Shown here one piece after another: positions 7,518 through 63,216 of a DNA stretch of 64,000 nt. Each line of letters starts with the position of its first letter. Within the stretch, counting starts at the first letter, position 1. The DNA is from Candidatus Zixiibacteriota bacterium (GTDB lineage: Bacteria; Zixibacteria; MSB-5A5; DG-27), in NCBI GenBank assembly GCA_030605835.1, contig JAUWHO010000042.1, positions 5,732-69,731 on the forward strand. The letters run 5' to 3'. The position numbers and the translations under genes were made by a program. Below the pieces are notes generated by a model. It made no database searches, had not been told where the DNA came from, and saw only the letters and a program-made list of their open reading frames with translations.

Positions 7518-7592
7518 TAGGAAACAGGGGACCGGAGACAGGGAACAGGAAACAGGGGGCCTCAGTGAACCGTGAACTGTCAACTGTGAACT
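7518..7592. repeat. Purine-rich 7-nt repeat tract (AGGAAAC / AGACAGG / GTGAACY units on + strand)
   Basis: Begins about 3 nt after the lptG-like stop (7513-7515): aggaaacaggggaccggagacagggaacaggaaacaggg...gtgaaccgtgaactgtcaactgtgaac. Confidence 0.8.
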
Positions 7593-7880
7593 AACCGGGG
7601 TAGCCTCCTGGCCTCGGCCAGGGGGATTATTTTGAACCCGTAGAGCGGTGAATTTATCACCGCCATTTCTATGAGCCGTGACCCCCTACCCCTGGGTAGC
7701 CCAGTGGCCTCTGCCACTGGGTCGCTTGCATCAACTTGGGTGTGATGAATTCTCCGACCCCTACGGATTATCTTTCAAGGGAATCGGAAATCGCATATAG
7801 GAATCAGTGAACGCAGCATTCATTTACAATCCATGACGGTCGGTCTAACGGGTAACCGCAGAGGTTATCCTCCAGAGACA

Positions 7881-7910: not shown

Positions 7911-8017
7911 TTCGATCACAAGTAAGCTGGGAGCTATCTTTATTGTTCCGTCAGGACCGAAGCGTAGCGTGTCCTGACGGTTAGTCCGAGGCGTAACCAC
8001 AGAGGTCATCCCTGGAT

Positions 8018-8049
8018 ATAAAAAAGGCAGGGGTGGTATCCCCTGCCCT
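8018..8049 (-). terminator. Intrinsic terminator (second copy)
   Basis: aaaaaaggcaggggtggtatcccctgcc on + strand = GC stem followed by UUUUUU on the minus-strand RNA. Confidence 0.5.
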
Positions 8050-8224
8050 TTCGGTCACGAATAAGTTGAGTGTTATCTCTTGTCCATGGGAACGTATTCG
8101 GCCTCCAGTGGTCCGACGTAAACTGCCCGAGGTCTGAAGATACGGTTTACTGTTCCGTCAGGACCGAAGCGTAGCGTGTCCTGACGGTTAGTCCGAGGCG
8201 TAACCACAGAGGTCATCCCTGGAT

Positions 8225-8256
8225 ATAAAAAAGGCAGGGGTGGTTTCCCCTGCCCT
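8225..8256 (-). terminator. Intrinsic terminator of citrate synthase gene (proximal copy)
   Basis: About 25 nt past the gltA stop: aaaaaaggcaggggtggtttcccctgcc on + strand, i.e. 8-bp GC stem plus U6 on the minus-strand transcript. Confidence 0.6.
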
Positions 8257-8279
8257 TTCGGTCATGTATTAGCCGAGTG

Positions 8280-12680: not shown

Positions 12681-14144
12681 CTACCTTCTGGGAACGATCT
12701 CAATCCTGCGGTTTTTCTTAGCATTCTTGTTGACAGGATCGAGGAAGTTGGTCTCGCCGTAACCGGTGGCGGTCATCCTGGCGGAGCTGATTCCCTTGCC
12801 CTGCAGATACTTCTTGACAGCATCCGCCCGCCCCTGGGAGAGTCTCTTGTTCAGACTCCTGGAACCGAGAGCGTCGGTGTAACCGTTGATGTCAATCTTA
12901 ACGTCGGTGTAAACCGCCAACCGCTCCGCAAGGTCGTCCAGCTTCATCCTGGCAGCAGCGTCTGGCTCCACCGAACGAATGGCATACTCGATGTGCAGAA
13001 CCAGAGGCTCTTCGATCGGCTTGGCCAAAGGACAACCTTTCTCATCAACCGGAGCGCCCGCGGGAGTGTCCGGGCAGCGGTCGATGCCATCGGCAACGCC
13101 GTCGTTGTCCGAGTCAATGGGGCAACCGTTCATATCAACCTTGGCTCCCCGGGGAGTCCCAGCGCACTTGTCTTTGTAATCGGGAACGCCGTCATTGTCC
13201 TCGTCGAGGGGGCAACCCTTTCTGTCGACCTTAACACCGGAGGGGGTGTTGGGGCAACGGTCGATGCCGTCATAGACTCCATCCCTATCGGAATCGATGG
13301 GGCAACCGTTGACGTCGACCTTGGCGCCTCTGGGAGTGTTGGGGCACTGGTCTAAGCCGTCGTAAACGCCGTCGCCGTCCTCGTCAAGCGGACAGCCGTT
13401 CATATCCACCATGGCGCCAATCGGGGTGTCGGGGCACATGTCCATATCGTCGTTAACCCCGTCCTTGTCGGTGTCCTTGCCTCCGCCAATGTAGTACGTG
13501 AAATTGACAGAGGGCTCAAGATAGGCGCGATAGGCTCTCCACTTCGACTCCGCCTGCTCGTCGGTCCACGCGTCATCCTTCTGGACGTACATCAGAAAGT
13601 AGTTGAAGCGCGCTCCGACGTTGATGCCAATTCTCTCAGCGACGAAGAACTCCACACCAGCTCCGCCCTTCGCAAAGAGGTCGCTGTAGCTGGCGACCTC
13701 GACGCCTCCCGGCTCGGTCTTGAGCTTCATGAAGTTGATGCCGATGCCGGCCAGAACGAACGGACGGACGTTGCTTTCAGGCATGAAATAGTACCACCCG
13801 GTAACATCCGTGAAGATGCCGGTCAGCTTCATGCTGGCATCACCACTGCTGTAAAAACTGAAGCTCTTGTCGTCGGTCCCGGTGGTGTCGTCGTAAGTGA
13901 GACCGTAGGCACCGGAGACACCCACCATGATGTTCTCGTTGAGCCCGTATTTGAACTGGACTCCACCGAGAAGTCCCATCAGAAAAGGCTCACGATTGAG
14001 CTCGGAACCGTTCAAGAGGGGGGCCCAGAAGGGACCCTTTGCGCCGACGCCAATCGATTTGGTCAAATCGAACTGCGCCCAAGCACCGCTGCTGAGAAAG
14101 GCTGCCATAAGCAGAGCAATCCCTAGATAGGTCAGTTTCTTCAC
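12681..14144 (-). CDS. OmpA-family outer membrane protein with thrombospondin type-3 calcium-binding repeats
   Basis: ORF track 487 aa; signal peptide MKKLTYLGIALLMAAFLSSGAWA; N-terminal beta-barrel-like region; repeated DxDxDGVxD...CPNTP units; C-terminal OmpA domain (...NGYTDALGSRSLNKRLSQGRADAV...NRRIEIV). Confidence 0.85.
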   Translation of the reverse strand: MKKLTYLGIALLMAAFLSSGAWAQFDLTKSIGVGAKGPFWAPLLNGSELNREPFLMGLLGGVQFKYGLNENIMVGVSGAYGLTYDDTTGTDDKSFSFYSSGDASMKLTGIFTDVTGWYYFMPESNVRPFVLAGIGINFMKLKTEPGGVEVASYSDLFAKGGAGVEFFVAERIGINVGARFNYFLMYVQKDDAWTDEQAESKWRAYRAYLEPSVNFTYYIGGGKDTDKDGVNDDMDMCPDTPIGAMVDMNGCPLDEDGDGVYDGLDQCPNTPRGAKVDVNGCPIDSDRDGVYDGIDRCPNTPSGVKVDRKGCPLDEDNDGVPDYKDKCAGTPRGAKVDMNGCPIDSDNDGVADGIDRCPDTPAGAPVDEKGCPLAKPIEEPLVLHIEYAIRSVEPDAAARMKLDDLAERLAVYTDVKIDINGYTDALGSRSLNKRLSQGRADAVKKYLQGKGISSARMTATGYGETNFLDPVNKNAKKNRRIEIVPRR

Positions 14145-20703: not shown

Positions 20704-20886
20704 GTCGCATTTCCTCTCACAACGCCCGACGGTGGAGGTTTGAGCTACCCGGCTTCTCGACCGTGGTGACTCCTTGCCTCCCCGAGCAGGCTTTCAATTC
20801 TCACGTATGACCGAACTTCAATCTGACCGAATTGGGTATCTTTGACGGGTCTTCTGACTCGAATACTCTCCACGTTCGCGATTAAA

Positions 20887-20920
20887 CCATTCACTATTCA
20901 CCATTCACCGTCCACCATCC
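20887..20920. repeat. CATTCAC-type 7-nt repeat tract (short copy)
   Basis: ccattcactattcaccattcaccgtccaccatcc; part of a segment (about 20846-20925) duplicated at about 21173-21300. Confidence 0.7.
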
Positions 20921-20997
20921 AGCTAGGGTGGGGGTTGAACCCCCACCCTCGAACGGGCAGGGGTACAACCCCTGCCCGAGCTTGAGCGAACCACAAT

Positions 20998-21072
20998 TCC
21001 CGTTACCTGTTACCTAGTTCCTATTTCCTAATTTCCCGTTCCCTGTTTCCTGCTCCCTGTTACCTGTCACCC
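20998..21072. repeat. Pyrimidine-rich 7-nt repeat tract (CCTGTTA / CCTATTT / CCCTGTT units)
   Basis: cccgttacctgttacctagttcctatttcctaatttcccgttccctgtttcctgctccctgttacctgtcacc, within the MacB-like/TolC-like intergenic region. Confidence 0.75.
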
Positions 21073-21210
21073 ACTTCTACGCGCGTCTCAGGGCCTCCAC
21101 TCCGCAGTGGTGTCAGGAGTTTCCTCCTGACACCTACCGTCAGGACGCCAGAGTCGCCTAAAGTGGAAACACCTGACGGCACTCGAATATTCTCCACGTT
21201 CGCGATTAAA

Positions 21211-21300
21211 TCATTCACTATTGACCATTCACCATTCACTATTCACCATTCACCATTCACTATTAACTATTCACCATTCACCAATCCCTGTCACCTGTCT
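21211..21300. repeat. CATTCAC / TATTCAC 7-nt repeat tract (GTGAATG on minus strand)
   Basis: tcattcactattgaccattcaccattcactattcaccattcaccattcactattaactattcaccattcacc..., ending at the MacB-like stop codon (21301-21303). Confidence 0.85.
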
Positions 21301-41564: not shown

Positions 41565-41846
41565 TTACCGAAAGCTCTCGGAGGTGTAAGGCAGAAGCCC
41601 CAGGTGTCGTCCGCGTTTGATGGCGACCGTCAACTGCCTCTGATGACGGGCGCAGCTGCCGGAAATCCGCCGCGGAATGATCTTGCCGCGATCAGATACA
41701 AACCTCCGGATCATCCTCTCGTCTTTGTAATCGATAACGTCGATCTTGTTCTCGCAGAAGCGACAGATCTTTCTCCTCCTGTAGTCGACACTGAAGGAGC
41801 TTTTTCTCTGCTTTCTCGTCGTTCTATCCGTTCTCGGCCTTCTCAT
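41565..41846 (-). CDS. rpsR: 30S ribosomal protein S18
   Basis: ORF track 93 aa; ...[60 protein letters not shown] matches bS18. Confidence 0.95.
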
Positions 41847-49353: not shown

Positions 49354-50676
<1,323 letters not shown>

Positions 50677-50840
50677 CTAAAGGCTGCTGAGCTCAGGAGT
50701 CTAATTTACACCTTATGTTTTCTATTTCAAGACTTTTTTCCTGACTTATCGTTGTGGCGTCGGATGCCCACATCCGACGCAAGCTCCCCGTTGAACCCCT
50801 CAGCTCGGGCGGGAGTTGCACTCCCGCCCGCACAACCCCC

Positions 50841-50910
50841 GTTCGTCACGGACGCCCTCGTCCGTGACGTTTCTCGGGTACAGGACAAGGCGTCCTATAC
50901 CAACAGTGGG
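50841..50910. repeat. About 70-bp two-hairpin palindromic element (copy 1)
   Basis: gttcgtcacggacgccctcgtccgtgacgtttctcgggtacaggacaaggcgtcctataccaacag: hairpin gtcacggacg/cgtccgtgac then aggac/gtcct; near-identical copy at about 54764-54835. Confidence 0.8.
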
Positions 50911-51044
50911 GAGAAACACTCACAGCCCGCCAATGGCGGGTAAACACATGAAACGAATGAAACGGATCGGCATCTGCTTAATCCGCTTAGTCTGCTTGCC
51001 CGCCTCAGGCGGGCTGTGAATAACCCCTGTATCCTGCTTGCCGT

Positions 51045-52034
51045 CTACTTCTTTTTGCGGTGTAGCTTGACGAAACCTGCCTCCTCCCCCAGCGGTTCCG
51101 CATCGAACCCCTCTTCTTCGAGGTAATCGACGAACTCCAGAAATCCATGCACCACGTAAATTTTCCTGGGCTTTGCCTTCTTGGCGTAGCTCATAAGCTC
51201 TGTGAAATCGGCATGGTCGGAGAGGGGTAAAACCTCGTCGGCGTCGTACCTGTACATAGTGCTTCGGTTCAGAGCCCAGCCGGTGAGGAGGAGTTTCTTT
51301 CTTTTCTTTATGGCGTCCAGGGGCTTCCAGCGGGAAAGATGCGGAGGCACCAGCACCACCCCCAAGCCCGCACTTCCGGGCCGCCACTGGTCGTAGTTAC
51401 CGAACTTCACCCCGAACTCCTGGTAAATCTCGGCGATCTCGTAGATCGCCTTGTGGACTGAGAGATCGAATCCAGCATCGCCTAAAAGCTTCATCGTCTC
51501 CTGAGCCTTGCCGAGAGAGTATGCCATCACAATCGGAACCTCCCCCCGATCCCTGGTATCCTTCACCCAGTCCACGATCTTCTGATGGGTCTCGGCAGTT
51601 TCCGGGAAGACATATTCAGGCAAGCCGTAAGTAGATTCCATGATGAGGATATCACACTCTTTGATCTCCGCCGGGGGACAGGTCAGTGACTCTCGCAGCT
51701 TCAAATCGCCGGTGTAGACAATCTTTGTGCCTCTATACTCGATCAGAACCTGGGAGGAGCCTAAAATATGTCCGGCGGGGAAAAGCTCGATGGTTGCCCC
51801 TCGAAGCTTCAGAGGTTTGCCATATTCCAGCGCCTCGGTTTCGACATTCCCCTTTCGGAGAGCGAATAGCTTCGCAGTCTCCGGAGTGGCGATGATCTTT
51901 CTGTGATTGACGATGTGGTCGGCGTGAGCGTGGGAGATGACACTGAGGTCAACTTTCCGCTCGGCATCCAGCCACAACTCTAGCTCGGGGAGATATAACC
52001 CCCTGTTATGTTGAATCTCGACTTCAGTGCTCAT
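51045..52034 (-). CDS. MBL-fold metallo-hydrolase, beta-CASP-like (RNA/DNA processing exonuclease family)
   Basis: ORF track 329 aa; metallo-beta-lactamase motif VISHAHADH plus downstream D/H residues; resembles ligase-associated or mRNA 3'-end processing exonucleases. Confidence 0.65.
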   Translation of the reverse strand: MSTEVEIQHNRGLYLPELELWLDAERKVDLSVISHAHADHIVNHRKIIATPETAKLFALRKGNVETEALEYGKPLKLRGATIELFPAGHILGSSQVLIEYRGTKIVYTGDLKLRESLTCPPAEIKECDILIMESTYGLPEYVFPETAETHQKIVDWVKDTRDRGEVPIVMAYSLGKAQETMKLLGDAGFDLSVHKAIYEIAEIYQEFGVKFGNYDQWRPGSAGLGVVLVPPHLSRWKPLDAIKKRKKLLLTGWALNRSTMYRYDADEVLPLSDHADFTELMSYAKKAKPRKIYVVHGFLEFVDYLEEEGFDAEPLGEEAGFVKLHRKKK

Positions 52035-52038
52035 CGAG

Positions 52039-52530
52039 TCATCCTAACTTATAGCCGATTTTGCGCAAAAAGCTCTTCCGCGCCTCCACATCCTTTGGAG
52101 TCTCGATTCCCTTCGGAGCAAAGCCATCGATGACTCCGAGGACTCCCCGTCCCAGCTCGGTTTCGGCGACAATGACTTCCACCGGGTTGGCGGTGGCGCA
52201 GAACAGGCCCACCACCTCCGGACAGGCCTTCAAGGCATGCATGATGTTGATGGGAAAGGCTTCCCTTATGATGATTACGAAGCTGTGTCCGCAGCCGATT
52301 CTTTGGGCGTTCTCTTCGGCCTTCTTTTTCAGCTCCGCATCGTTCCCCTCGGAGCGGACCAGACACTCTTGCGAGGCTTCACAAAATGCCAATCCAAACT
52401 TGATGCCCGGCACCGAGCTTATGAGCAGTTCGTACAGATCCTCCGCGGTCTTGATGAAATGGGTCTGGCCGATTATTACATTCGCCCCCTCCGGTATTTC
52501 CACCTTTACGGTCTTGAGTTCCATTCGCAC
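52039..52530 (-). CDS. Adenosine-specific kinase family protein (small conserved protein)
   Basis: ORF track 163 aa; [29 protein letters not shown]...[15 protein letters not shown]...IGYK resembles the adenosine-specific kinase family from memory; unverified. Confidence 0.5.
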
Positions 52531-52675
52531 CTCCGGGAAAATTCGATTTCACAGTTCGAGAATGAGTATACGCGTTTCTCCCGAGGCAGTAAAGAGATTT
52601 TGTAGCGAGGGGAGTCCTGTTGTAAGAGTGGGGATTGATGGTTTGTGGAGTTGGGAGACAGGGAAAAGAGGCTGA

Positions 52676-53257
52676 TTAAAGAGCGCTGATGAGAATCTGC
52701 ATGACAATTCCGCTGCAGAGAATCACCATCAGATTGTCGTCGACCTTGGTGGAGGCAGCTTCGGCCACGGTGGCCACCCCCGCCCCGATGAATCCCACCT
52801 TAAGGGGCAAACCGGGGATGAGGAGTGCCACCACCATGCAGATGCCCAGACAGGCCAGGCTGCCCTCAACGGATTTGTGGCTGTAATGTATCCGCCCCCA
52901 CCTTTTCCCCACCAGAGCGGCGGCGATGTCTCCGAAGATGATAAAGGCGATGGCGGCCACCGCCACGATCTTATCGAAAATCGCTATGGCGACAAGGGAG
53001 GTCACCAGAAGGTATGTCCCCCCGGTGAAGTGGCCTTCTTCGTGGTCTCTCAGAATCGGACCGATCAGCTTCTTCTGCACCCCGTAGCCGAACCAGTGGT
53101 TAAACCTCATCAAATCTAAAAAGAGGGAGACCGCCGCTATGGGCGCCAGGATGAAAAGGGCAAACTCCTTCGACACGAAGAAATATATGATCGGAATGGA
53201 CAGGGAGACAAAGTGCACCCCCTTTCTCATACTCTCTCTGAGGAACGACAACGCCAT
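52676..53257 (-). CDS. Polyprenol/diacylglycerol kinase-like membrane protein (CTP-dependent DGK1/SEC59/VTE5 family); start uncertain
   Basis: ORF track 52676..53617 trimmed to internal ATG (MALSFLRES...): the upstream 120 codons overlap GC-rich palindromic repeats and look non-coding. FGDIAAALVGKRWGRIHY motif. Confidence 0.5.
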   Translation of the reverse strand: MALSFLRESMRKGVHFVSLSIPIIYFFVSKEFALFILAPIAAVSLFLDLMRFNHWFGYGVQKKLIGPILRDHEEGHFTGGTYLLVTSLVAIAIFDKIVAVAAIAFIIFGDIAAALVGKRWGRIHYSHKSVEGSLACLGICMVVALLIPGLPLKVGFIGAGVATVAEAASTKVDDNLMVILCSGIVMQILISAL

Positions 53258-53657
53258 TTGTGACCGGCCCAACTTGCTTACAGCATGTGCCCGCCGGTCA
53301 AGAAACCAGGTTGGCGGATGAATATCAAGTAGATTCTGTGAAGTAACTCCGGAGGTGGAAAGCGGTCTGATCTGTTTAATCCAACTGCTCGTCTCCCACC
53401 GCAGGTGGGTCGCGTACGGGCGTGGGGCGGTCTGTGAACCGTAAACTGTCAACGGTGAGCAAATCGCCGGTAGCGCCGCGACCTCCCACCGGAGGTGATT
53501 CGCCTCTGGCGACCGGCGGACTGACAATGCAATTCCTCGCGCGTAGGTCGAGGGATTCATCTTCTCAAAACAGATGCGAACAGGTCGGACATTTCCCACG
53601 ATCCCATACGAGTCCACACCACCGAATGGACCTGCTCGACAAGCCTTCGAGGAATCT

Positions 53658-53690
53658 CCCTGTCTACTACCTACTATCTACTACCTACTG
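53658..53690. repeat. CTACTAC / CTACTGT 7-nt repeat tract
   Basis: ccctgtctactacctactatctactacctactg, overlapping the last codons and stop (53685-53687) of the ORF ending at 53685. Confidence 0.8.
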
Positions 53691-54107
53691 TTCTTTAGAA
53701 AATTTCTCGTCCAGCGATTTCTTCATATTCGGTGAGGCTTTCCTACCTACGGCCGCCTGGGCCGCTCTCCGGGCCGTCTCCTCAGAGACCCCGGTGATTC
53801 TCCTGATCTCATCCACAGCGACATCAAGCCACTCCAGCCAGGGCTTGTCTGGATATTTCATGGAGAGGTAATCGGTAACATCATCGGCGATGATCAAAAG
53901 GTGCTCCGCGACGTTCTTGTTCGTATTCGACTTCAGCGTAGGCACCAAGAATTTCTTGCTCAACCACGCAAGCACTGTCAGAGACACGAGTCCGATAATT
54001 TCCATTAGAGACTCCTTCAAAACCGGAACAACCTCATCTGAAACCCCAGCGTGAGCCGTCCCGGCAAAACAGAATAACAACGCTACTGCACAGATTATCT
54101 GCTTCAT
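53685..54107 (-). CDS. Small secreted/membrane-associated hypothetical protein
   Basis: ORF track 53685..54143 trimmed to third ATG (MKQIICAVALLFCFAGTAHA signal peptide; GGAGG 7 nt upstream); one further hydrophobic helix. Confidence 0.45.
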   Translation of the reverse strand: MKQIICAVALLFCFAGTAHAGVSDEVVPVLKESLMEIIGLVSLTVLAWLSKKFLVPTLKSNTNKNVAEHLLIIADDVTDYLSMKYPDKPWLEWLDVAVDEIRRITGVSEETARRAAQAAVGRKASPNMKKSLDEKFSKEQ

Positions 54108-54141
54108 CATCATCCTCCAGGTAGAGAGAGCTTGTTCCCCC

Positions 54142-54206
54142 ATTTCCTATTTCCTATTTCCTATTTCCTGTCTACTGTCTACTGTCTACTACCTACTACC
54201 TACTAA
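54142..54206. repeat. CCTATTT / CTACTGT / CTACTAC 7-nt repeat tract
   Basis: catttcctatttcctatttcctatttcctgtctactgtctactgtctactacctactacctactaacc; overlaps the last 5 codons (LVGSR) and stop of the M15 peptidase gene. Confidence 0.85.
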
Positions 54207-54590
54207 CCTTGGCACTTGGATATGTATATGTTCTCCTCTGCCAACATCGTGATGAATGAAGCGGATTCCCCAATCTCCATACCAGTATTCGATCCAGTTC
54301 TGTTGTTCTAAGATTTCCTCAGCGGTAAAGCCGCGGCTGCGCAAATCCACGGCTCCACAGGGAGAGTCGAGGTGTCTGCTCGGCTTCAGGTAACCGTAGA
54401 TTTCTCTTTGTCGTTCGGGGGTTCTCCTCACCTCCGTAACGACCAGGTTCTTCCCAGCGGTGCGAGAAACGAAACCCGCTAACTCCAAGATCATCCCCCG
54501 CAGCCGCGCGTCCATCCCCCGGTGGGAATAGAACTGCTCTTCCAGTGCGGGCCTCTTGAATAGTAATCCCATTTTCTTAAAGGTAAACAA
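54189..54590 (-). CDS. Peptidase M15-like (zinc D-Ala-D-Ala / L-Ala-D-Glu peptidase fold; endolysin-like)
   Basis: ORF track 133 aa (TTG start, AAAGGGGA upstream); [13 protein letters not shown] and GEHIHIQV resemble the H-x-D / E-x-x-H zinc ligands of M15 peptidases; no signal peptide. Confidence 0.5.
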
Positions 54591-54630
54591 TTTCCCAAAT
54601 CCCCTTTTGGGTGGAAGGGAGCGGGGTGGC

Positions 54631-54733
<103 letters not shown>

Positions 54734-54763
54734 CTTTCAACGGGAAGGAGGATTCACGACCCT

Positions 54764-54835
54764 GTTCGTCATGGACGCCCTCGTCCGTGACGTTTATCAG
54801 GTATAGGATGAGGGCATCCTATACCAACAGGGCGA
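54764..54835. repeat. About 70-bp two-hairpin palindromic element (copy 2)
   Basis: gttcgtcatggacgccctcgtccgtgacgtttatcaggtataggatgagggcatcctataccaacag; flanked on both sides by 7-nt repeat tracts. Confidence 0.8.
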
Positions 54836-54840
54836 GGTGG

Positions 54841-54875
54841 CCCTGTTCCCTGTCTCCTATCTCCTGTTTCCCGTT
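54841..54875. repeat. CCTGTTC / CTATCTC 7-nt repeat tract
   Basis: ccctgttccctgtctcctatctcctgtttcccgtt, ending 3 nt before the stop (54878) of the upstream minus-strand gene. Confidence 0.8.
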
Positions 54876-54877
54876 TT

Positions 54878-56050
54878 TCACCAGGTGAGCTGCCAGCTAC
54901 TCTGCTGTGGCACCGTCACCTTCTTGCGCAGCACCGCTCCGGAAGAATGGTAGATGATGAACTCATACTGGGTGTCGTCAGGTGTCAAAACTGCGTTGGG
55001 ATAAAGGTCCAGATACCAGTATCCTGAGGTGTCGCTGGTAGTGGATTGATGGTATGGCGATATAATGGTCGATTCGTAACGTAACGGCACCCGGTTTATC
55101 TTTGCGGAGATAGTGATAGCCGCCAGGCCCTCACCGGCGAGGCCGTATATCCATCCGTATACCCGGCAGAGTTCAGGCTCGGGTGGCTCCCCGGGATCGA
55201 ATGTCGTCGCCCAGACGGTATCATTGACGCTTCCGGCGACAATGAGGGTATCGGGCAGGGGAGTGAACACCTGCCCCGCCTTCCAGGACCAGAGCTTGTA
55301 GGTGCCGGGGTCGAGTGAGAATATCGCTTTCCCCTCTGAATCGGTGTAGGCTCGGGCCGCGGTGGCATTCTCGGAGTCGTTCATAACCCGTATGAAGGCC
55401 GCCTGTATTGCAGTGGTGTCCTCGATCGTGAAGGCGTATAACGAGCAGGCATAAGCGCCACCGCCCGTTATTGTGACCACTTCGCCATATATCAAGCTCA
55501 CAGTGTCGCGGACAATTGCAAGCATACCCTCCTCTCGCTCGATGCTGTCGGAGGTGACCTCGGCGATCTGAGAGATACTGCCAGAGGAGACCAGAGCGCT
55601 GTCACCTTTGGCGAAGAGACCTCCTTCGACCACCTGATAATTGCCGGAGAAGCCCGGATAGCCGGAGCCCCGGAAACAGACCCGGTCGAGGGTATACTGT
55701 CCGGCATCACCGTTGGCGTTTGAAGCTTTGACCCGGTATTCGAAATATCCCAGACGCAACTTCCGGATGGCGTTATCAGAGCCTTTCCAGGTGACGGAAT
55801 CAAACAGGCTCTCTCGGTAGAAACGCAGAATCAGAATGCTATCCGGATCGGCGAGATTGCCGGTGACGCCATTGCTGAGAGTGGTGAAGTTGATCCTGAC
55901 GGTGTCGGCGGGAGAGTTCCCGTTGCCGTAAATACCGTAGTATTCGGCGCTACTCACTTTGTGAAGAAACAATGCCAAACAGATAGTCAGGGTGACCAAC
56001 AAGAGCTTCGAGGTGAAACTCTCTTTGTGGGCGAAAACTGACCTCTTCAT
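54878..56050 (-). CDS. Secreted hypothetical protein
   Basis: ORF track 54878..56074 trimmed to ATG at residue 9 (MKRSVFAHKESFTSKLLLVTLTICLALFL; AGGGGA 8 nt upstream); no family recognised. Confidence 0.45.
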   Translation of the reverse strand: MKRSVFAHKESFTSKLLLVTLTICLALFLHKVSSAEYYGIYGNGNSPADTVRINFTTLSNGVTGNLADPDSILILRFYRESLFDSVTWKGSDNAIRKLRLGYFEYRVKASNANGDAGQYTLDRVCFRGSGYPGFSGNYQVVEGGLFAKGDSALVSSGSISQIAEVTSDSIEREEGMLAIVRDTVSLIYGEVVTITGGGAYACSLYAFTIEDTTAIQAAFIRVMNDSENATAARAYTDSEGKAIFSLDPGTYKLWSWKAGQVFTPLPDTLIVAGSVNDTVWATTFDPGEPPEPELCRVYGWIYGLAGEGLAAITISAKINRVPLRYESTIISPYHQSTTSDTSGYWYLDLYPNAVLTPDDTQYEFIIYHSSGAVLRKKVTVPQQSSWQLTW

Positions 56051-56119
56051 TGTCAATCCCCTATCGCAAATCAAAAAGGTTAGCTTCTGTCTTCGGGAAT
56101 GGAGTTATCGTAGAATTAG

Positions 56120-56944
56120 CTACGGCAAGTCCGGGGAGCGCAGATAACCGATTTTTCGGACGAAGCGGTTGAGGAGGCGGTATGCCTCCATCTGATAGCT
56201 GTTAGCTAAGACACTCCACGATTCGGCTAAAGCTCCGGCGGTGCTGTTGCGGGGCGAGAGGGAAGCGGCCTCCCCCGCCTTGATACGACAGAGTATCGCC
56301 ACCGCCAGATAGGTCTCCGCGGTCACCAGCGCCTGGTCGGTAGAATCGCCGTATTGTTCGTCGATGTACTTGACCACCTTGTCGGCGGCTTCGGTGATGG
56401 CGTTGGCAATTACATCATCGTTTAAGAACCCGTATTCCACGGAGTAATCCACTAAAACCCATTGCCCCTCCTCGATGACGCCGCTCGGCTCCCTGGTGAT
56501 CAGAGCGGTGGTGTAATTGATCTTGTAATCCTGATCCCTTTGGTAGATCCGGTAGTATAGATACCACACCGTCACCGTCGCGCCTCCGGGAATCGAACCG
56601 GTGGTGTTTCGCTTGATAGTCCCGTCATCGTAGTCAACGCTGTAATCGACATTCTCCTGGTAGATGGTGTTCATGGAGCTGTTGTCGGCCACCACCACGC
56701 TGTCGTATATCAGCTCCTGATCCGGAAGGGAGATCTGTTCTAGGAGTCCGAAGCTCCCCTCAAACTGCACCGGCTCATTCATCTCTTTGGCCTTCACCTT
56801 CTCGGAGGCCGGCAGCAGGTTTCCCATTTTCAACCGGCAACTCTTCCCGCTTGCGAGGTGTAAAGGCTCATTCTCTATATCTTCAGAGCCGAGGTGGTGT
56901 TCTATAAGATGTTTTTTCACCAATACGATATTTGTGAAGGCCAT
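56120..56944 (-). CDS. Hypothetical protein
   Basis: ORF track 274 aa; ATG with AAGAGAGG upstream. Confidence 0.4.
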   Translation of the reverse strand: MAFTNIVLVKKHLIEHHLGSEDIENEPLHLASGKSCRLKMGNLLPASEKVKAKEMNEPVQFEGSFGLLEQISLPDQELIYDSVVVADNSSMNTIYQENVDYSVDYDDGTIKRNTTGSIPGGATVTVWYLYYRIYQRDQDYKINYTTALITREPSGVIEEGQWVLVDYSVEYGFLNDDVIANAITEAADKVVKYIDEQYGDSTDQALVTAETYLAVAILCRIKAGEAASLSPRNSTAGALAESWSVLANSYQMEAYRLLNRFVRKIGYLRSPDLP

Positions 56945-57002
56945 AGCCAGACCTCTCTTGAATCTTCGTTATTGCTCAAAAAGGGTAGCAGGTTATACAG
57001 AG

Positions 57003-57371
57003 CTAGCTCATCTCGACTACCCACAGGTCCACCAATCCAGTCTTGGAGGCCTCATCTTTAGCGATCCTGAATCCGGTCTGGTTTTCAGAGCCCACCTGGA
57101 AACAGCGGACCTCGTTTTTGGCAAGGATGATAACCTTGGGGTTTGCGATTGTATCCGGAAGCGGGTTCCCCTTGTAATCGAAAAGATCGCTGTAGCTCAC
57201 CTCCTGGTTTAAGCCTCCCAGGAAGGCTCGACCGAGGAGGATCCTCTTGGCGCCGGAAGCCGATTCAGTGAAGACGATCGAAGCCTCCACACTGAAGTAG
57301 TCCCCCCAGACTCTGAAATTCTTGACCAGCCAGCTTTTGTGTCCACGAAGGTAGTCTAAGGTGATGTTCAT
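57003..57371 (-). CDS. Hypothetical protein
   Basis: ORF track 122 aa; ATG start. Confidence 0.35.
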   Translation of the reverse strand: MNITLDYLRGHKSWLVKNFRVWGDYFSVEASIVFTESASGAKRILLGRAFLGGLNQEVSYSDLFDYKGNPLPDTIANPKVIILAKNEVRCFQVGSENQTGFRIAKDEASKTGLVDLWVVEMS

Positions 57372-57458
57372 CTCAAACCTCGAAATTCTTTTGGAGCGGA
57401 AAGTTCACGCACTTCTCCGTTCACAGATAGCTGCCTGCCCGCTAATTGGCAGGCGGGC

Positions 57459-58895
57459 TCAACCGTCAACGACGTTGATGTAGTCGGCGTCGGAGATGGC
57501 GGTGATCTGACTTCCCACCGGCGCCACGTTGAAGGGGGTGGCGGTCTTGGCCCGCACCCAGTATTTGGTCTCTCCATTGACGCTCTTGATCTGCCAGTCC
57601 GAGGGAGACGAGTGCAAGTCCTCCCACAGATAGACGATGAAGTTGCCGGTGAAGTGATAGGCGCCGGAGTAAGGGGTGAAATCCTGCCAACTGCTACCGT
57701 TCCAGTACTGCCATTCCACCGTCCCGATGGTGCCGCCGGTCGAGAGAATGGCGTGCACCACGCTGAACGGTGCCTCCATCCCTAAATACAGAGTATCGTT
57801 GAGGTCCTTCACTAACGCCCCGGAGGTGGGGTGATAGACATCCGCGGAGGTGGTATCGCCGGCCTCGGTGGTGCGGTCTTCGTATTTGCTGGGGGCATCG
57901 TCATCGTAACAGAAGACCTTGTCAAACAACCCCAGGGCTATCTCCAACGGCTCCGAAGATGAAAAGCTGTCCCCGGACTTATAGTTGTAGTGAAGTCGAT
58001 CCTGAAGAGTTCCGTAATTCTTGGTGAAGAACACATAGGGCGTCACCCCAAAATACCTCAGGGCTGGGGAGCCGCTGTCCTCGAACTCAACCAGATGAAG
58101 TCCCGACCAGGCTCCGCCGTCGTATTCCTTGAAGCAGATTCCACCGACGGTGGGAGCTTTGAAGGCCACCCCAACTCTGTTTTCGGGACTGCTGTCGGAG
58201 GAGAACTGATCGTTGATGTAGCTGCTCATATAGATGCCGACTTCATCCTCCCAACTCCCACCAGTCAGCGGACGGCAACGATAGGCCAAATACGAGCGGT
58301 TGTAGGTGTATATGCAGAAGAGCTTGTTCAGGGCGATCACCAGAGAGCTGTAGCAAGGGTATGCGTAACCGGAGGTGAGGGCCTCGCCGGGATCGTTGGG
58401 GCCCTCTCCCCAGGTGAGACCATCGTCGACGGAGGATTTCACGTGCAGATAATGGCTCGCCTCCGGGGGAGCCACGAAGTAACTCCAGGCCACCCACAGT
58501 TTCCCCCCTTCCTCCCCTATTATGACCGGATAGTAGTTGTCCTGCTGGTCACAGATTGTGACCGGGCTTCCCCCAGACCACTCCCCGGCACCGAAGGTGA
58601 GCTTCACAAACTTGAGATCCATGTTGGTTTGCGCGGTGAAGACAAGATACAGGTTGCTGTCGGTGTCCATGAATGCCGAGAAAGGCTGGTTGGCGCTGCC
58701 ACTCGTTACGGTTGTCGACTCTGACCAGGAGGTGTAGGGCGGGTCCGACCAGCTGTACGCGATGGTGTTGGCGTCTTTGCAGTAGAGGGCAATCAGGCGG
58801 TCAGTGAAGTCGCCGTTCTTCACCCGGAAGAGCTTCCTCTGCGGCGATATCCCGGTGCCGTAAAAGGAGGTGACGGTATCAATCAGTCTCTGCAT
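57459..58895 (-). CDS. Hypothetical protein with an Asp-box (BNR) motif
   Basis: ORF track 478 aa; ATG with CAGGAGAAG upstream; SSVDDGLTWGEG Asp-box; Trp/Tyr/Ser-rich, consistent with a beta-rich carbohydrate-binding or structural protein. Confidence 0.4.
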   Translation of the reverse strand: MQRLIDTVTSFYGTGISPQRKLFRVKNGDFTDRLIALYCKDANTIAYSWSDPPYTSWSESTTVTSGSANQPFSAFMDTDSNLYLVFTAQTNMDLKFVKLTFGAGEWSGGSPVTICDQQDNYYPVIIGEEGGKLWVAWSYFVAPPEASHYLHVKSSVDDGLTWGEGPNDPGEALTSGYAYPCYSSLVIALNKLFCIYTYNRSYLAYRCRPLTGGSWEDEVGIYMSSYINDQFSSDSSPENRVGVAFKAPTVGGICFKEYDGGAWSGLHLVEFEDSGSPALRYFGVTPYVFFTKNYGTLQDRLHYNYKSGDSFSSSEPLEIALGLFDKVFCYDDDAPSKYEDRTTEAGDTTSADVYHPTSGALVKDLNDTLYLGMEAPFSVVHAILSTGGTIGTVEWQYWNGSSWQDFTPYSGAYHFTGNFIVYLWEDLHSSPSDWQIKSVNGETKYWVRAKTATPFNVAPVGSQITAISDADYINVVDG

Positions 58896-58949
58896 GATAG
58901 CTTCTCCTGAGGAGGTGGGGCGGGAGACTCACTCCCGCCCTCGCTGCTC

Positions 58950-60059
58950 TTAACTCCAGGTTATGTCCAAAACCTTGCTGGCGTCCTCGACGATCTTGGC
59001 GTAGGCCACGGATTCGGAGATGACCGCCTCCTCGATCTTCTGCTCCACCACCTTGTCGTATTCCACTAAAAGCGGCTGCGAGAAGACCTCCTCCATGGCG
59101 AAACGGTTGTCCAATCCTAAGATGTAATCGCTGGGGATCTCGTCACACCTCACCAAGCTGGTGCCCAAAGGAGAGATGATCTCTCCGGTCTTCTGGAACT
59201 TGAACCCCGCCATGGGGTCTTTGAACTCCTCCATGGTCAGGATGGTGCGAATCTGGTCCTTGTGGCAGATCAGGGTGTTGAGCTCGAAGGGATAGAGTTC
59301 GTTCCAGAATTTGATGAGGTCGTCGTAGTCTAAGGTGCCGGAGACGTCGGTGTTTATCACCTCCGCGGGGTTGGAGTTGCCGTCGCCGCTTATGATAGTG
59401 TTGACCAGAAGGGCGTTCTTGTCCTGCTGCAGCCGGAAGCCCAAATACCACAAGAGGACTTTGAATTGGGCGGTGGTGCGATAGCGCAACGCCTTGTATG
59501 AGGCCTTCAAGGTCAAGCCGTAATCCGGTATGACGATGGTGTGTTTCTGTTCCGCCACGATGACGGAGGGAAGCTCCGCGGCATCTCCGACCGGACGCAG
59601 GGAGAGCTCGGTGTCGGTGGCGGAGGTGTCGATGAAGAACGGCGTATAGCGGCTGCTGTTGATGATAGTGGAGCTTGCCACCAGGCGATTCAGCTCCGGG
59701 CGCATCTTCTGCCCCCTGCGGATCTCCCGCATGATGAACTCCGGCAACAGGCCCGGGGCCTCCCGGTAGAAAAGCTCCACCGCGGAGGGATTCTTGCCGG
59801 CGGTCTTGATTCCGGCGATCGCCAGCTGCCGCTCGAAGGCATCCAGGGGGGAGTCTGCTTGACTGGGGTCGTAGTTCTCGGACTCCAAAAGCTCGCTGAC
59901 AGTCATTCCCCGAGACTGTGCCTCCAGGTAAGTATCTCTGTCGATCTTGAGCTGTTTGGCCCGGGAGAGATCGACATACCTTTGAGGCTCTCTCTGTTTG
60001 ATCTCATCCTCGACCGAGAGGACCCGACCGTAATTATCTGCAAATTCAGCTAAGTTCAT
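58950..60059 (-). CDS. Putative phage major-capsid-like protein (tentative)
   Basis: ORF track 369 aa; size and position (after protease-like, scaffold-like and DUF2190-like ORFs) fit a capsid gene; no motif confirmed by eye. Confidence 0.3.
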   Translation of the reverse strand: MNLAEFADNYGRVLSVEDEIKQREPQRYVDLSRAKQLKIDRDTYLEAQSRGMTVSELLESENYDPSQADSPLDAFERQLAIAGIKTAGKNPSAVELFYREAPGLLPEFIMREIRRGQKMRPELNRLVASSTIINSSRYTPFFIDTSATDTELSLRPVGDAAELPSVIVAEQKHTIVIPDYGLTLKASYKALRYRTTAQFKVLLWYLGFRLQQDKNALLVNTIISGDGNSNPAEVINTDVSGTLDYDDLIKFWNELYPFELNTLICHKDQIRTILTMEEFKDPMAGFKFQKTGEIISPLGTSLVRCDEIPSDYILGLDNRFAMEEVFSQPLLVEYDKVVEQKIEEAVISESVAYAKIVEDASKVLDITWS

Positions 60060-60195
60060 ATTCTGTTCTCCTCACCGGAGGCTATAAAAAAGCCTCCGGC
60101 TGAAAAAGTTGTCAGTTTGCCGGCCTCAGCTTGACTTGTGGCAGGCAGGATGATATGAGCATTCCCGAATGATCGCAGTGGGAAGCTCGAACGGT

Positions 60196-60618
60196 TTAGT
60201 TCAATATGAGGGTGACCTCAGTGGAGCCGTGAACCGCGATGACGGTGCCCCGGGCGACGTTTCCGCCGGCGGGGTCATTGCCCGCCAGGGCTGGGGCCTG
60301 CTTGACACTGCCGTCGCCATCGACCACCACTCTACCCCCCAACCCCGGCACCGTTGCGGTGGCAGGCAATGTGGCCACGCCTCCCACCTGCACCGTGGCG
60401 ACGCGTTTGCCTTGATCGGCATCGGTCAGGGTCAAATCCGCCAGCTTCCCTAAGAGAACGTCTCCATCGCTGCCGAAACTGACTTCGTAATCGTCGCTGA
60501 TGGCGACCGCTTTTCCGATGTCTTCGTCCTTGAGGTCGTCAACATCTCCGGTCTGATGGATTTCGAAGGTGGCGAAGACCGCCCCCACGTTTTCTAAGTT
60601 CTGATCTCTAACGCTCAT
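60196..60618 (-). CDS. DUF2190-like small Gly/Val/Ala-rich protein (phage head-associated family; tentative)
   Basis: ORF track 140 aa; ...GKLADLTLTDADQGKRVATVQVGGVATLPATATVPGLGGRVVVDGDG pattern resembles DUF2190 from memory. Confidence 0.35.
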   Translation of the reverse strand: MSVRDQNLENVGAVFATFEIHQTGDVDDLKDEDIGKAVAISDDYEVSFGSDGDVLLGKLADLTLTDADQGKRVATVQVGGVATLPATATVPGLGGRVVVDGDGSVKQAPALAGNDPAGGNVARGTVIAVHGSTEVTLILN

Positions 60619-60864
60619 TTCCGTCTCCTATTCTGAGTTATTCTCTGTCCTATCGTTGAGCGGCGACAACGCCGCCTGAAACTGTCAGGCAGGAATGCCT
60701 GACCTGTCATTTCGGTCAGGCAGCAATGTCCGGCCTATTCCTAATATTACATCCCTAATAGGCTGGGCTTTTCCGCCGGGGACTGCCCGAGGCAGTCAAG
60801 CGGATCAGCCTCTGGCTGACCAGCCCAGCGCTCAAATATGCGTGGAGCAGCAATGCCAGACCCT

Positions 60865-61266
60865 TTATTTGAATTCAGATGTGGTGAGGTAATCATCTTC
60901 GGTCAGTTCTTCCTGGTGTGACCCTGGTCGATTCGGCAGACACCGATTGAACTCTGAGGTCACCTCTTTTTTCAGCAACTTCAGATCCTCGTAACTGAGA
61001 TCCTGGCTGTCTAAAAGCTTGGTGATCATGGAGGCCGAGGTGGTCTCCCCTTTCACCTTCGTGATGGCGGAGAGCATCCTTCTCACCTCGTTCTTCACAT
61101 CCTCGGTGATTCTGACAGCTAAGGAGCTTTTTTCGCGAAGATCCACGAGCGCTTCCTTGGCCATCTCCAAATCCGAGATCAGGGCATCGAAGTCGATCAA
61201 ATCCAGGCTTTCAGCTTTTAGAAACCTGGTGTAATCTCCAAGCCTTTCAGCGATATCTTTGGACAT
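60865..61266 (-). CDS. Acidic coiled-coil protein (scaffold-like; tentative)
   Basis: ORF track 133 aa; predicted mostly helical, highly charged (E/D/K-rich). Confidence 0.3.
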   Translation of the reverse strand: MSKDIAERLGDYTRFLKAESLDLIDFDALISDLEMAKEALVDLREKSSLAVRITEDVKNEVRRMLSAITKVKGETTSASMITKLLDSQDLSYEDLKLLKKEVTSEFNRCLPNRPGSHQEELTEDDYLTTSEFK

Positions 61267-61302
61267 TTATTCCTCCACTATGCCGCAACAATCCTCTCAT
61301 TC

Positions 61303-61352
61303 CCCTACCTACTACCTACTCACCACTAACCACTCACCACTCACCACTCACC
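61303..61352. repeat. CTACCTA / CACTCAC 7-nt repeat tract
   Basis: cccctacctactacctactcaccactaaccactcaccactcaccactcacc; overlaps the last codons (GEW) and stop of the 98-aa ORF and precedes the next gene's start. Confidence 0.85.
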
Positions 61353-61637
61353 TTTCCTGGTTTGATATTCGATTTTCATCAACCGAGTGTTGATCTGTTC
61401 CCTGAACTCGAAGAACTCCTCCTTGGTGATGAATTTGCTGTTCAGGAGCACCTCGATGTTGGACAGTCTTTTGTCCAGCTGGTCGACGTTGGCGGCTTCG
61501 GCTTTGTTTGCGAGGTCAAGCCTTATGCCACCTATGGTGGTGTAGTAGGCCGCCAGAACTCCGCAAACCGTGACCAGAAAGGCAACCGCGAACTGTAACA
61601 GTTCCCTTTTGCCCAGGAACTTGACGTTATTCTTCAT
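61341..61637 (-). CDS. Small membrane-anchored coiled-coil protein
   Basis: ORF track 98 aa; N-terminal TM helix LLQFAVAFLVTVCGVLAAYYTTIGGI then heptad-rich region. Confidence 0.35.
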   Translation of the reverse strand: MKNNVKFLGKRELLQFAVAFLVTVCGVLAAYYTTIGGIRLDLANKAEAANVDQLDKRLSNIEVLLNSKFITKEEFFEFREQINTRLMKIEYQTRKGEW

Positions 61638-62706
61638 CTTGAGATTTCATTCTGTAAAAAAGCCAGCGGAATTTTTTGTTGATGATTATCTTCCGGAAGC
61701 GGAAATCCCCGCTCAGGTGTGGAGACAGAAACTGTATCTCCATTAGGTCCCGATTAAGACGGGTAGGTGCTATCTCTTCCGGAGGAATAGTAATATCTTC
61801 GACCGGAATCTCATCCTTTTGTTGCCCCGGTCTGCCGTCCTGCAAACACAAGTCTGCCAGGAAGCATCTGCCCTGTCTGATTCTCTCTTCATATCCGGAG
61901 GGCAGAGCGAACTGATATCTATTCCCGTTGACGGAGAAGGAGAAACGGAATCTCTTGTCCTCTTCTTTCGGGACTTGACCCGGCGGCTTTTGACCCAGGT
62001 AGCCCTGCAGCGAGAAGAAATCTAGCTCCTTGGTGATCCTGGTATTTGGAGTGGCGCCGCGGTAAACTAAAGAGGTCTCCAGAATCTTTTCAACGCCACG
62101 GTAGTTGAAATAAGCGGTCTGGAGCTCACCCGAGGGGCCTCGATACTTACGGAAGGGTATATGTTTGCATTCTCGTATATCCTCTCCGCAGATGCTGCAC
62201 TCCGGGGTGGTGAAGCTGAAGCTGATGGAACACTCCTTGTAGACGCCGGAATCGATGTTGGTTTTTAAGTCTTCCCCCTCCTTGGTCCCTTTGGCCCAGT
62301 AGAAATAGACCTTCACCCAGGAGGTGACCTCTCCCTTTGGGGAGCTATTCGCCCTCTCCACCACCGCGTGGAAATTTCTCGCCACTGGAAGCTTTTCTTT
62401 GGAATGACCGACCATCACCGGGGTGTCGACAAGCAGTGCCGCGATGCGATCGTGCTCCTCCGGAGGGAAGCGGCCGCCGCAGTTGTTCACCGAGTCGGAG
62501 ACTATATACATGGCCCGGATATGAACCTCCCCGTTTTTCACCGGGCGGGGTGGCCGGATGCGTCTGTTTATGAGGTTTATCAGTTCCTCCTCTTTGGAGG
62601 GGCTTTTCGTTCCCGCCTCTAAACGTGCTTTTAGCTTACCGTTCAACTGTGTCAATTTCGCCTCCAAGTGTCTCTCCACCCTATACCCTCTCTTCAGAAA
62701 CAGCAT
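61627..62706 (-). CDS. Putative prohead serine protease-like protein (HK97 gp4 / S78-like core with C-terminal extension; tentative)
   Basis: ORF track 359 aa; ...TPVMVGHS...(about 55 aa)...EGEDLKTNIDSGVYKECSISFSF has His-then-Ser spacing and context similar to caudoviral prohead proteases; start codon uncertain. Confidence 0.35.
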   Translation of the reverse strand: MLFLKRGYRVERHLEAKLTQLNGKLKARLEAGTKSPSKEEELINLINRRIRPPRPVKNGEVHIRAMYIVSDSVNNCGGRFPPEEHDRIAALLVDTPVMVGHSKEKLPVARNFHAVVERANSSPKGEVTSWVKVYFYWAKGTKEGEDLKTNIDSGVYKECSISFSFTTPECSICGEDIRECKHIPFRKYRGPSGELQTAYFNYRGVEKILETSLVYRGATPNTRITKELDFFSLQGYLGQKPPGQVPKEEDKRFRFSFSVNGNRYQFALPSGYEERIRQGRCFLADLCLQDGRPGQQKDEIPVEDITIPPEEIAPTRLNRDLMEIQFLSPHLSGDFRFRKIIINKKFRWLFYRMKSQDEE

Positions 62707-62868
62707 ACAATCGATGGTGTTTTCCCGCAGTGCTGTCGGGAGTTTCCTCCCGTCAGAAACAGTCAGGCCTATGGCGCGAATGCGTTTCCGCTACAGTCGA
62801 ATAGACTGGGCTTTGGAGCCGAGCGGGGGGCTGCTGCACGGGTGGTGCCACGTCGCCACAAACAGCTA

Positions 62869-62990
62869 GGGTGGGGGTTGAACCCCCACCCTCAGGCGGG
62901 CAGAAGATATCCGCCCTGGCGGAGGCCAGGGAGCTACCCATGTGGATTTCGTTCCCAGCGGGGTAGCCCAGTGGCCTCTGCCACTGGGTA
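62869..62990. repeat. Cluster of GC-rich palindromic elements shared with other intergenic regions
   Basis: gggtgggggttgaacccccaccc (also at about 20926-20948) and gggtagcccagtggcctctgccactggg (also at about 7693-7722), copies identical over 26-30 bp. Confidence 0.8.
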
Positions 62991-63117
62991 TGGTATTTCT
63001 TTGCGCCCGGCAAAAGGCAAGGAGGTGGAGTCTAACAATCCCCTATCTACTGTTTGCTGGCTCTGGAAACCTAAGGGTCAGACACCTCGTTTGAGACTCC
63101 CCGTCCGATACCCAAAA

Positions 63118-63216
63118 GGTCACGGATGAGGGCATCCGTGACAAACAGGTTGACTCCGGAGTACGAACGCCCCGGCTATGCCTTCCTGTTCCCTGTTCCC
63201 TGTTTCCTGTCTCCTG
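63118..63216. repeat. Hairpin element (gtcacggatgagggcatccgtgac) followed by CCTGTTC-type 7-nt repeats
   Basis: Variant of the two-hairpin element plus ccttcctgttccctgttccctgtttcctgtctcctg. Confidence 0.75.

Follow-up and report, generated by a model that had tools for sequence, protein, structure and literature searches.

Inverted hairpin doublets in the intergenic spacers of Zixibacteria, a likely new family of REP-type repeats

A short sequence able to fold into two hairpins occurs upstream of an enolase gene in a 64,000-nt stretch of a Candidatus Zixiibacteriota contig (the whole of which is hereafter called the window), and a closely similar sequence lies among unrelated genes some 4 kb away, which raises the question of what kind of element this is and how it came to be dispersed. 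The first-pass annotation of the window described a conserved two-hairpin element of about 70 bp in at least three copies and considered that it could be a REP- or MITE-like mobile element or a regulatory RNA. Searching the window for the first hairpin (GTCACGGAYG-N4-CRTCCGTGAC, at most three mismatches) returned exactly three sites, at 50845-50868, 54768-54791, and 63119-63142, whereas no match was obtained in 100 dinucleotide-preserving shuffles of the window. These sites belong to three loci of one repeat family, at 50836-50909 (copy A), 54759-54833 (copy B), and 63075-63151 (copy C), in agreement with the number of copies first described. Copies A and B were 87% identical over 54 nt without gaps and approximately 85% identical over the ~74-nt element (counted from the alignment rows), close to the original estimate of 85-90% over about 70 bp. 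In addition, a covariance model of the repeat unit (R1), run over the whole window with filters off, recovered five full units and nothing else above 17 bits.

Each locus is composed of two units, termed U1 and U2. In copy A, U1 (50836..50870, plus strand; R1 53.1 bits, E 1e-16) has the tail CCCCCGTT and the hairpin C-GTCACGGACG-CCCT-CGTCCGTGAC-G with a perfect 11-bp stem, and the inverted U2 (50876..50909, minus strand; 39.6 bits) has the tail CACTGTT and the hairpin GGTATAGGAC-GCCTT-GTCCTGTACC, in which one G.T pair on the unit strand appears as a C.A mismatch on the plus strand (ggtacaggac/gtcctatacc). In copy B, U1 (54759..54793, plus strand; 48.2 bits) is identical to that of the ortholog L043 in the Zixibacteria MAG K_1_bin.48 and contains one G.T pair (GTCAT/GTGAC), the T of which is thus also present in the orthologous copy of this close relative; the perfect first hairpin initially ascribed to the element therefore holds for copy A and not for copy B. 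The inverted U2 of copy B (54799..54833, minus strand; 46.3 bits) forms GGTATAGGATG-CCCT-CATCCTATACC with a perfect 11-bp stem (ggtataggatg/catcctatacc), and the second hairpins first proposed for both copies were recovered, that of copy A with its single mismatch. Copy C, first listed as a variant at about 63118-63142, is not a bare single hairpin; it was found to consist of a U1 of the 'T' subtype on the minus strand, in the orientation canonical for the family (63117..63151, GTCACGGATG-CCCT-CATCCGTGAC; 37.5 bits, identical in the K_1_bin.48 ortholog L041), followed by a diverged partner U2 (63075..63112, minus strand) made up of GGTATCGGACGGGGAGTC and the ~18-nt insertion TCAAACGAGGTGTCTGAC. 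This partner went undetected by R1 and aligns with a composite form in L041, L052, L084, and L030 of DG_27. Moreover, an extra hairpin module of the AGCCGGGGC...CTCCGGAG type (63154..63179, minus strand) adjoins the U1 tail of copy C, and a module of the same type also lies 5' of U1 in L041, L052, L076, and L077, a mosaic read from the sequences. A related hairpin, GCGTCGGATG-CCCA-CATCCGACGC, with a perfect 10-bp stem (50757..50780), shares the spacer of copy A and is kept in L019 and L186; it has the stem top CGGATG/CATCCG in common with the units and gave only a partial R1 match (16.2 bits, 50760-50777).

Copy A occupies the 383-nt spacer between a metallo-beta-lactamase (MBL)/RMMBL gene (51045-52034, minus strand) and the enolase gene (49354-50661, minus strand); as had been proposed, it lies upstream of enolase, at a distance of 175 nt from the start codon. 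Copy B lies between two genes without a Pfam match, in a block (52676-62706) of co-oriented ORFs, mostly without Pfam or PHROG match. The initial description of this block as phage-like is borne out for one gene, which encodes a major head protein (58950-60059; phrog_3922, E 3e-63), and not for nine other ORFs tested, which had no functionally annotated match. Synteny with K_1_bin.48 holds for the parts of the block that its contigs cover (about 54.4-57.7 kb and 61.4-64.0 kb), and the colonization of the block's spacers by hairpin repeats and heptamers of the host points to a prophage remnant that has long been resident or to a capsid-derived system.

Other repeats also populate the window. 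Heptamers in tandem (CCTGTTT, CCTATCT, CTGTCTA, CATTCAC, and others) occupy numerous intergenic spacers, including those at 2441-2534, 7519-7592, 20886-21283, 53664-53689, 54142-54205, 54639-54735, 61305-61352, and 63183-63216, and are reminiscent of the STRR heptamers known from heterocystous cyanobacteria. Between 50 and 64 kb, where ORFs were mapped, the pyrimidine-rich strand of the arrays is the one opposite the genes. The lengths of the arrays differ between the window and K_1_bin.48 by multiples of 7, and such arrays are common only in the lineage of K_1_bin.48, DG_27, and the window. Small G+C-rich hairpin repeats of at least four more families (CAGCTAGGGTGGGGGTTGAACCCCCACCCT, CGGGCAGGGGTACAACCCCTGCCCG, GGTGTCAGGAGTTTCCTCCTGACACC, and CCCGCC-N-GGCGGG) were located at 20920-20978, 62863-62903, 50801-50830, 58913-58940, 21102-21144, 62725-62767, 50925-50941, and 50998-51016, and several of them appear as indels of 19-32 nt when the window is compared with its 95%-identical relative. 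Furthermore, a 207-nt segment is tandemly duplicated at 7939-8354 (95% identity), with a AAAAAGGCAGGGGTGGT.TCCCCTGCCCTTTC hairpin in each copy, and four tandem 90-nt repeats (64-70% identical) occupy an apparent coding sequence at 13030-13469, to which a 57-nt stretch at 41718-41774 is related; these repeats probably belong to a repeat-domain protein.

The multi-locus alignment revealed a repeating unit of approximately 35 nt, in which an 11-bp G+C-rich hairpin with a C-rich loop is preceded by a pyrimidine-rich tail whose last three bases are an invariant GTT (unit consensus YYYYYGTT-S-GT(C/A)A...). U1 reads C-GTCACGGAYG-CCCT-CRTCCGTGAC-G, and U2, on the other strand, reads G-GTAWCGGAC(A/G)-CCYY-(Y)GTCCGWTAC-C, with the short form GGTAWCGGAC-CCYY-GTCCGWTACC. 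As U1 and the reverse complement of U2 can be aligned as one family, the two-hairpin element is two inverted copies of a single ~35-nt unit, with the tails pointing outward and a spacer of 3-12 nt between them. Strict doublets of this form (n = 26, spacers 3-12 nt) held 52 of the 81 units analysed, and approximately 12 more doublets had a composite or decayed partner. Most of the apparent singletons likewise proved to have a partner that was split by an insertion or had decayed, and only one pair of neighbours among the 81 units was arranged tail to tail. The partners of a doublet are always slightly unlike, with a GTCAC stem facing a GTAWC stem, indicating that each folds on itself rather than with the other into one long palindrome.

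This was examined by scoring both a model of two local hairpins and a model of one long hairpin on the 26 doublets, with 500 shuffles as a control. Under the two-hairpin model, 92% of the positions were paired and 11 pairs were altered on both sides, and none of the 500 shuffles matched the observed pairing or covariation. Taken singly, the hairpins (stem 11 bp, loop 3-5 nt) were 96-99% paired, with compensatory changes. Since U1 was collected with a palindromic pattern and U2 with a hairpin finder, these percentages are inflated and the changes on both sides are the meaningful part. Two of the variable pairs were not forced by the search pattern, namely the closing pair, which swaps from C-G to G-C (19 versus 4), and the Y-R pair (CG 18, UA 6, UG 2, CA 0). 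U2 stems also vary among lineages by compensatory pairs (GTAAC, GTATC, GTATAGG, and GTAGAGG). The single long hairpin of REPIN style was rejected, with only 75% pairing, covariation no better than in the shuffles, and two positions mismatched in 26 of 26 doublets; given the better fit of two hairpins, the partners are to be regarded as systematic heterodimers, a state which has been suggested to shield dimers from cleavage as long palindromes (PMC3733652). An outer helix formed by the two tails was also rejected, as its 76% pairing was explained by column composition and reached by 123 of 500 shuffles. As single-stranded DNA, copies A and B folded into two hairpins on either strand (z -4.4 to -8.8), with the whole doublet of copy B reaching -28.1 kcal/mol (z -8.8). 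The unpaired parts, namely the spacer and the loops beyond their C-richness, were not conserved.

A scan for the first hairpin across one genome per species returned at least 99 stretches. Among the stretches listed, about half were isolated palindromes within genes of Actinomycetota, Proteobacteria, and other phyla, with no common flank, and the other half, with extended flanks in common, came from Candidatus Zixiibacteriota MAGs, five MAGs labelled 'uncultured Ignavibacteria', and one contig binned as Heimdallarchaeota. On the fetched loci, R1 separated approximately 75 true units with a tail (36-55 bits) from the chance palindromes of other phyla (at most 31 bits), and units were recognized in at least 10 Zixibacteria MAGs and at least five MAGs labelled Ignavibacteria, the GC content of unit-bearing genomes ranging from 0.39 to 0.55. 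The Ignavibacteria label may be loose, as the nearest named relative of one protein from these MAGs is from Zixibacteria (62% identity). The Heimdallarchaeota-binned contig (L044; JBHIFL010000222.1, 1872 nt), which carries three to four units beside a methyladenine glycosylase gene, is probably a mis-binned fragment of Zixibacteria. K_1_bin.48, which matches the window at 95% identity over ~4 kb and at 90-97% across the available segments, has at least 15 contigs that carry one site or more, and CSMAG_2715 has four doublets within 8 kb; REPs typically exceed 100 copies per genome. A cyanobacterial origin of the window, to which the heptamer arrays had initially pointed, was rejected on account of the match with K_1_bin.48. 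Although 82% of the fetched DNA was coding, 77 of the 81 units lay outside crude ORFs, and the four exceptions were at the ends of contigs or in questionable ORFs composed of repeats. Of the spacers containing U1, 23 were unidirectional, 8 convergent, and 4 divergent; within the unidirectional group, the unit shared the strand of the genes in 7 cases and lay on the opposite one in 16. The flanking genes were unrelated and of housekeeping type (Tpt1, GNAT, ArsR, tricorn protease, methyladenine glycosylase, and others). A phage or plasmid origin was considered and rejected, as the exact pattern had no match in IMG/VR and blastn found none in phage or plasmid collections.

Several loci retain traces of how the family multiplies. 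A U2 split after GGTAACGGA by TTCATCCTGA and a CCCCCGCC...GGCGGGGG hairpin was found in L007 and L086 of one MAG and in L071 of another, with a short form of the same composite in L038. Similarly, the ~18-nt insertion TCATACGAGCCGTATGGC interrupts U2 in copy C of the window, L041, L052, L084, and L030 of DG_27, and the U2 that carries it is often preceded by another hairpin module beside U1. The simplest explanation for one and the same internal insertion at separate loci is that the composite itself was copied. Regarding persistence, copies B and C are conserved in K_1_bin.48, and in the rearranged enolase spacer of this MAG a 38-nt stretch with U2 of copy A is absent, two 19-nt hairpins of other families also being indels. 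Relatives of this spacer were fetched from metagenomes through enolase homologues rather than through the repeat (enolase identities 99%, 90%, and 86%). In L187 and L188 (enolase 90% identical), a doublet occupies the same site between the MBL and enolase genes, decayed to 28 and 26 bits in a lineage-specific manner, with a 15-nt insertion in U1 and with U2 present, and in L186 (enolase 99% identical) U1 is followed by tandem half-unit copies. The shared site in L187 and L188 indicates that the insertion is older than the divergence of these lineages and that U2 was lost in K_1_bin.48. Among the relatives reached through enolase homologues, orthologous copies were found and no clean pair of filled and empty sites, and no record was found for the window's own enolase or a 398-aa protein, both sought for strain-level filled and empty sites. 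As the one unit-sized indel represents a loss in K_1_bin.48 rather than a gain, these comparisons yielded no instance of recent transposition. Judged from the aligned loci, the family has been copied as doublets and larger mosaics, passed on by vertical descent, and worn down by small indels. Between its MBL and enolase genes, K_1_bin.48 also has an additional 694-aa TPR gene on the minus strand (L019, 4091-6175) that the window does not have, and the junctions of this gene lie in hairpin- and heptamer-rich spacer (window 50870-51026 compared).

These observations make it likely that the element is a doublet of a REP-type unit and represents a new REP/BIME/REPIN-like family, dispersed intergenically in Zixibacteria and close relatives. 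The REP-like mobile reading offered by the first-pass annotation is in keeping with a repeat that is multi-copy, extragenic, palindromic, arranged in inverted doublets, and marked by signs of copying, and the further copies and the covariation on which that annotation had made its reading depend both exist.

No transposase was found near the copies at ~55 loci (~340 kb), and no locus contained a gene-sized insert bracketed by U1 and U2. ORFs bracketed by units in L070, L084, and L046 were considered as hidden transposases and proved to be ordinary genes (GNAT, TPR, ArsR, and others). A motif search detected a RAYT (Y1_Tnp, HFHLL...YIHYNP) in L057 (5539-6050), in a MAG that has this repeat family, with GTAG REPs of the GTAGGTCGGG type on both sides; a truncated U2 (CTTTCGTTGGTAACG) abuts the upstream REP, a contact (5454-5468) that we read as incidental. 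The same upstream REP also carries a nested CCCGCCAAAGCGGG hairpin. Two named RAYTs of Zixibacteria, P0040 and P0085, likewise have GTAG REPs as neighbours and not U1 or U2. Besides 426 RAYT homologues, 80 metagenome loci of one RAYT clade and five further loci were collected, and the U1/U2 unit was absent from these 85 loci (288 kb of fragments). Within the sample reached, the doublets would seem to have no cognate RAYT of the kind expected for a REPIN. As to the GTAG REPs themselves, identical copies (GTAGCCCAGTGGCCTCTGCCACTGGG / GGGTAGCCCAGTGGCCTCTGCCACTGGGT) occur in the window at 7694-7722 and 62961-62989, with a variant at 7598-7626, and are of the type that flanks RAYT genes in Zixibacteria MAGs (L057, L182, and L185); in L187 and L188, one GTAG REP copy has a nested CCCGCCGAAGGCGGG hairpin in its loop.

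These results bear directly on the possibility that the family is a classical REPIN, moved by a RAYT that these genomes encode, with the link missed through fragmentary assemblies. The existence of Y1_Tnp RAYTs in Zixibacteria, one of them in a unit-bearing MAG with a truncated U2 against its upstream REP, and the REPIN-like architecture of the doublet are in its favour. Nevertheless, it appears unlikely, as each of the three Zixibacteria RAYTs inspected lies between GTAG REPs of another sequence, the window has a GTAG REP family of its own, the units are missing from the 85 sampled RAYT loci, and the doublet, with its two never-pairing positions, does not behave as one long hairpin.

The main rival to a REP-type replicator is a host binding site, in which the palindrome would be recognized by a conserved host protein (a dimeric regulator, a nucleoid or topology factor, or an RNA-binding protein) and its copies would be kept by selection. 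The 24-nt palindrome is almost invariant in genomes of widely differing GC content, a near-identity stronger than is usual for REPs and one that could reflect binding of a host protein; orthologous copies persist between relatives, and the search for a transposase was negative. However, the compensatory changes preserve the hairpin rather than its sequence (from GTCAC to GTAAC, GTATC, GTATAGG, and GTAGAGG), composites with insertions inside the stem have been propagated at several loci, and the sites lie beside unrelated genes, including in convergent spacers where no promoter is expected. Selection for such a binding site is therefore considered improbable as the origin of the family.

The MITE-like reading of the first-pass annotation, in which the units would be the terminal inverted repeats of a derivative of an insertion sequence with a DDE transposase elsewhere, could account for ends formed by ~30-nt inverted repeats and for a short, non-coding, dispersed element, but is very improbable, because no target-site duplication of 3-8 bp was detected at 13 assumed boundaries in the 26 doublets (at most 2 matches versus 0-0.6 expected), single units and larger mosaics exist as well, and neither a transposase around the copies nor a bracketed gene-sized insert was found. 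Its regulatory-RNA alternative, a structured cis-regulatory or small RNA (riboswitch-like leader, attenuator, or intrinsic terminator) acting on the neighbouring gene, is equally remote: it draws on the strong secondary structure conserved with covariation and on the position of copy A between two co-oriented genes, upstream of enolase, but the units commonly lie in both orientations to transcription, occupy convergent and divergent spacers beside unrelated neighbours, show no T-tract of an intrinsic terminator, have loops and spacers that are not conserved apart from C-richness, and have no Rfam match, either in the whole window at the gathering score or on the element at E ≤ 1 (50600-55000).

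For a REP-type replicator, the absence of target-site duplications in the doublets tested, the reliance on hairpins, and the parallel with IS200/IS605 and REPINs lead us to infer that new copies would arise via a single-stranded DNA hairpin intermediate, which would be handled in trans by a putative HUH/Y1 (RAYT-like) enzyme that recognizes hairpins. Judging from where they lie and from what other REPs do, copies that are transcribed probably serve as passive stem-loop barriers or as processing sites at transcript ends, and not as a dedicated regulator. It is also conceivable, though doubtful, that the family is a long-lived intragenomic replicator independent of RAYTs, a hairpin heterodimer preserved nearly base by base throughout a candidate phylum and nesting with other mini-hairpins, spreading via another hairpin-specific enzyme or by template switching during replication or repair, or else the recruited recognition site of a conserved host factor; if either were true, transposase-less REPs would gain a tractable second example outside Proteobacteria.

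REP- and REPIN-type repeats have been studied almost entirely in Proteobacteria, and a literature search for Zixibacteria together with REP, REPIN, or RAYT found no paper linking them. The hairpin-doublet family of Zixibacteria is thus previously undescribed, and it is of the same general kind as the REPs and REPINs of E. coli and Pseudomonas, whether selfish or structural. It extends the phenomenon of transposase-less REPs to an uncultivated phylum of the FCB group and adds a second REP family without a linked transposase. In practical terms, the repeats explain intergenic breaks of MAG contigs in this lineage, with contig ends lying within ~35 nt of a copy in L036, L186, and L044 and ~220-260 nt from one in L077 and L054, and the 35-nt R1 model provides a sensitive means of attributing contigs to the lineage, as exemplified by the 1.9-kb contig binned as Heimdallarchaeota. 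No new principle is revealed: the family is new and well supported, and its kind is familiar.

Among known systems, the SDRs of Nostocaceae are similar in being very small hairpin repeats that occur among tandem heptamer arrays and nest in one another. As reportedly described by Elhai and colleagues in 2008, SDRs are single units of 21-27 nt and not inverted doublets. They also differ in host phylum and sequence, and the heptamer arrays found here are confined to one sublineage, so that the association is not general; SDRs are also mentioned in PMC5861425 and PMC3116915. Of the features of the REP class, the Zixibacteria unit shows the extragenic location and the imperfect palindrome of 20-40 nt that forms a stem-loop. 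Members of the GTAG-tagged REP superfamily have an unpaired GTAG at one end of the palindrome, which the consensus of the Zixibacteria unit does not contain.

The CGTC-tagged REPs of Alphaproteobacteria are among the closest known kinds. According to their description (PMC3733652), they have no associated transposase, occur mainly as dimers and often as heterodimers, and are alike across many species, and their cognate gene has likewise not been found; how transposase-less REPs spread is named there as an open question. The same source defines them by an unpaired CGTC (or TGTC/CCTC) tag, an 8-9 bp stem starting with A-T pairs, a 4-5 nt loop, and a CCA tail. U1 starts with CGTC, U2 alone ends in CCA, and the 3-5 nt loop fits. 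However, CGTC is present in U1 only and is paired with the 3' GACG instead of forming an unpaired tag, U2 starts with GGTA, the stem has 11 bp rather than 8-9 bp and lacks two starting A-T pairs, a conserved pyrimidine-GTT tail is added, and the host phylum is outside those reported. In detail, therefore, the Zixibacteria unit does not fit the published CGTC definition.

The REPINs and BIMEs of Pseudomonas, E. coli, and others (PMC3116915, PMC2817692) are likewise among the closest kinds. REPINs have been described as replicating doublets (PMC3116915), and PMC3733652 describes REPs that occur as dimers or heterodimers as well as families lacking a transposase. Like these repeats, the Zixibacteria family consists of a short, extragenic, multi-copy palindrome that occurs mostly in inverted pairs with a short spacer, with singlets that look like remnants, and it shares with them vertical inheritance, decay, the absence of target-site duplications, and mosaics with other hairpins. 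In contrast, the unit has no GTAG tag and no unit-flanked RAYT was found, the RAYTs that are present bearing another REP. The partners of the doublet fold separately and not as one long hairpin, and the unit keeps its sequence in many species whose GC content differs.
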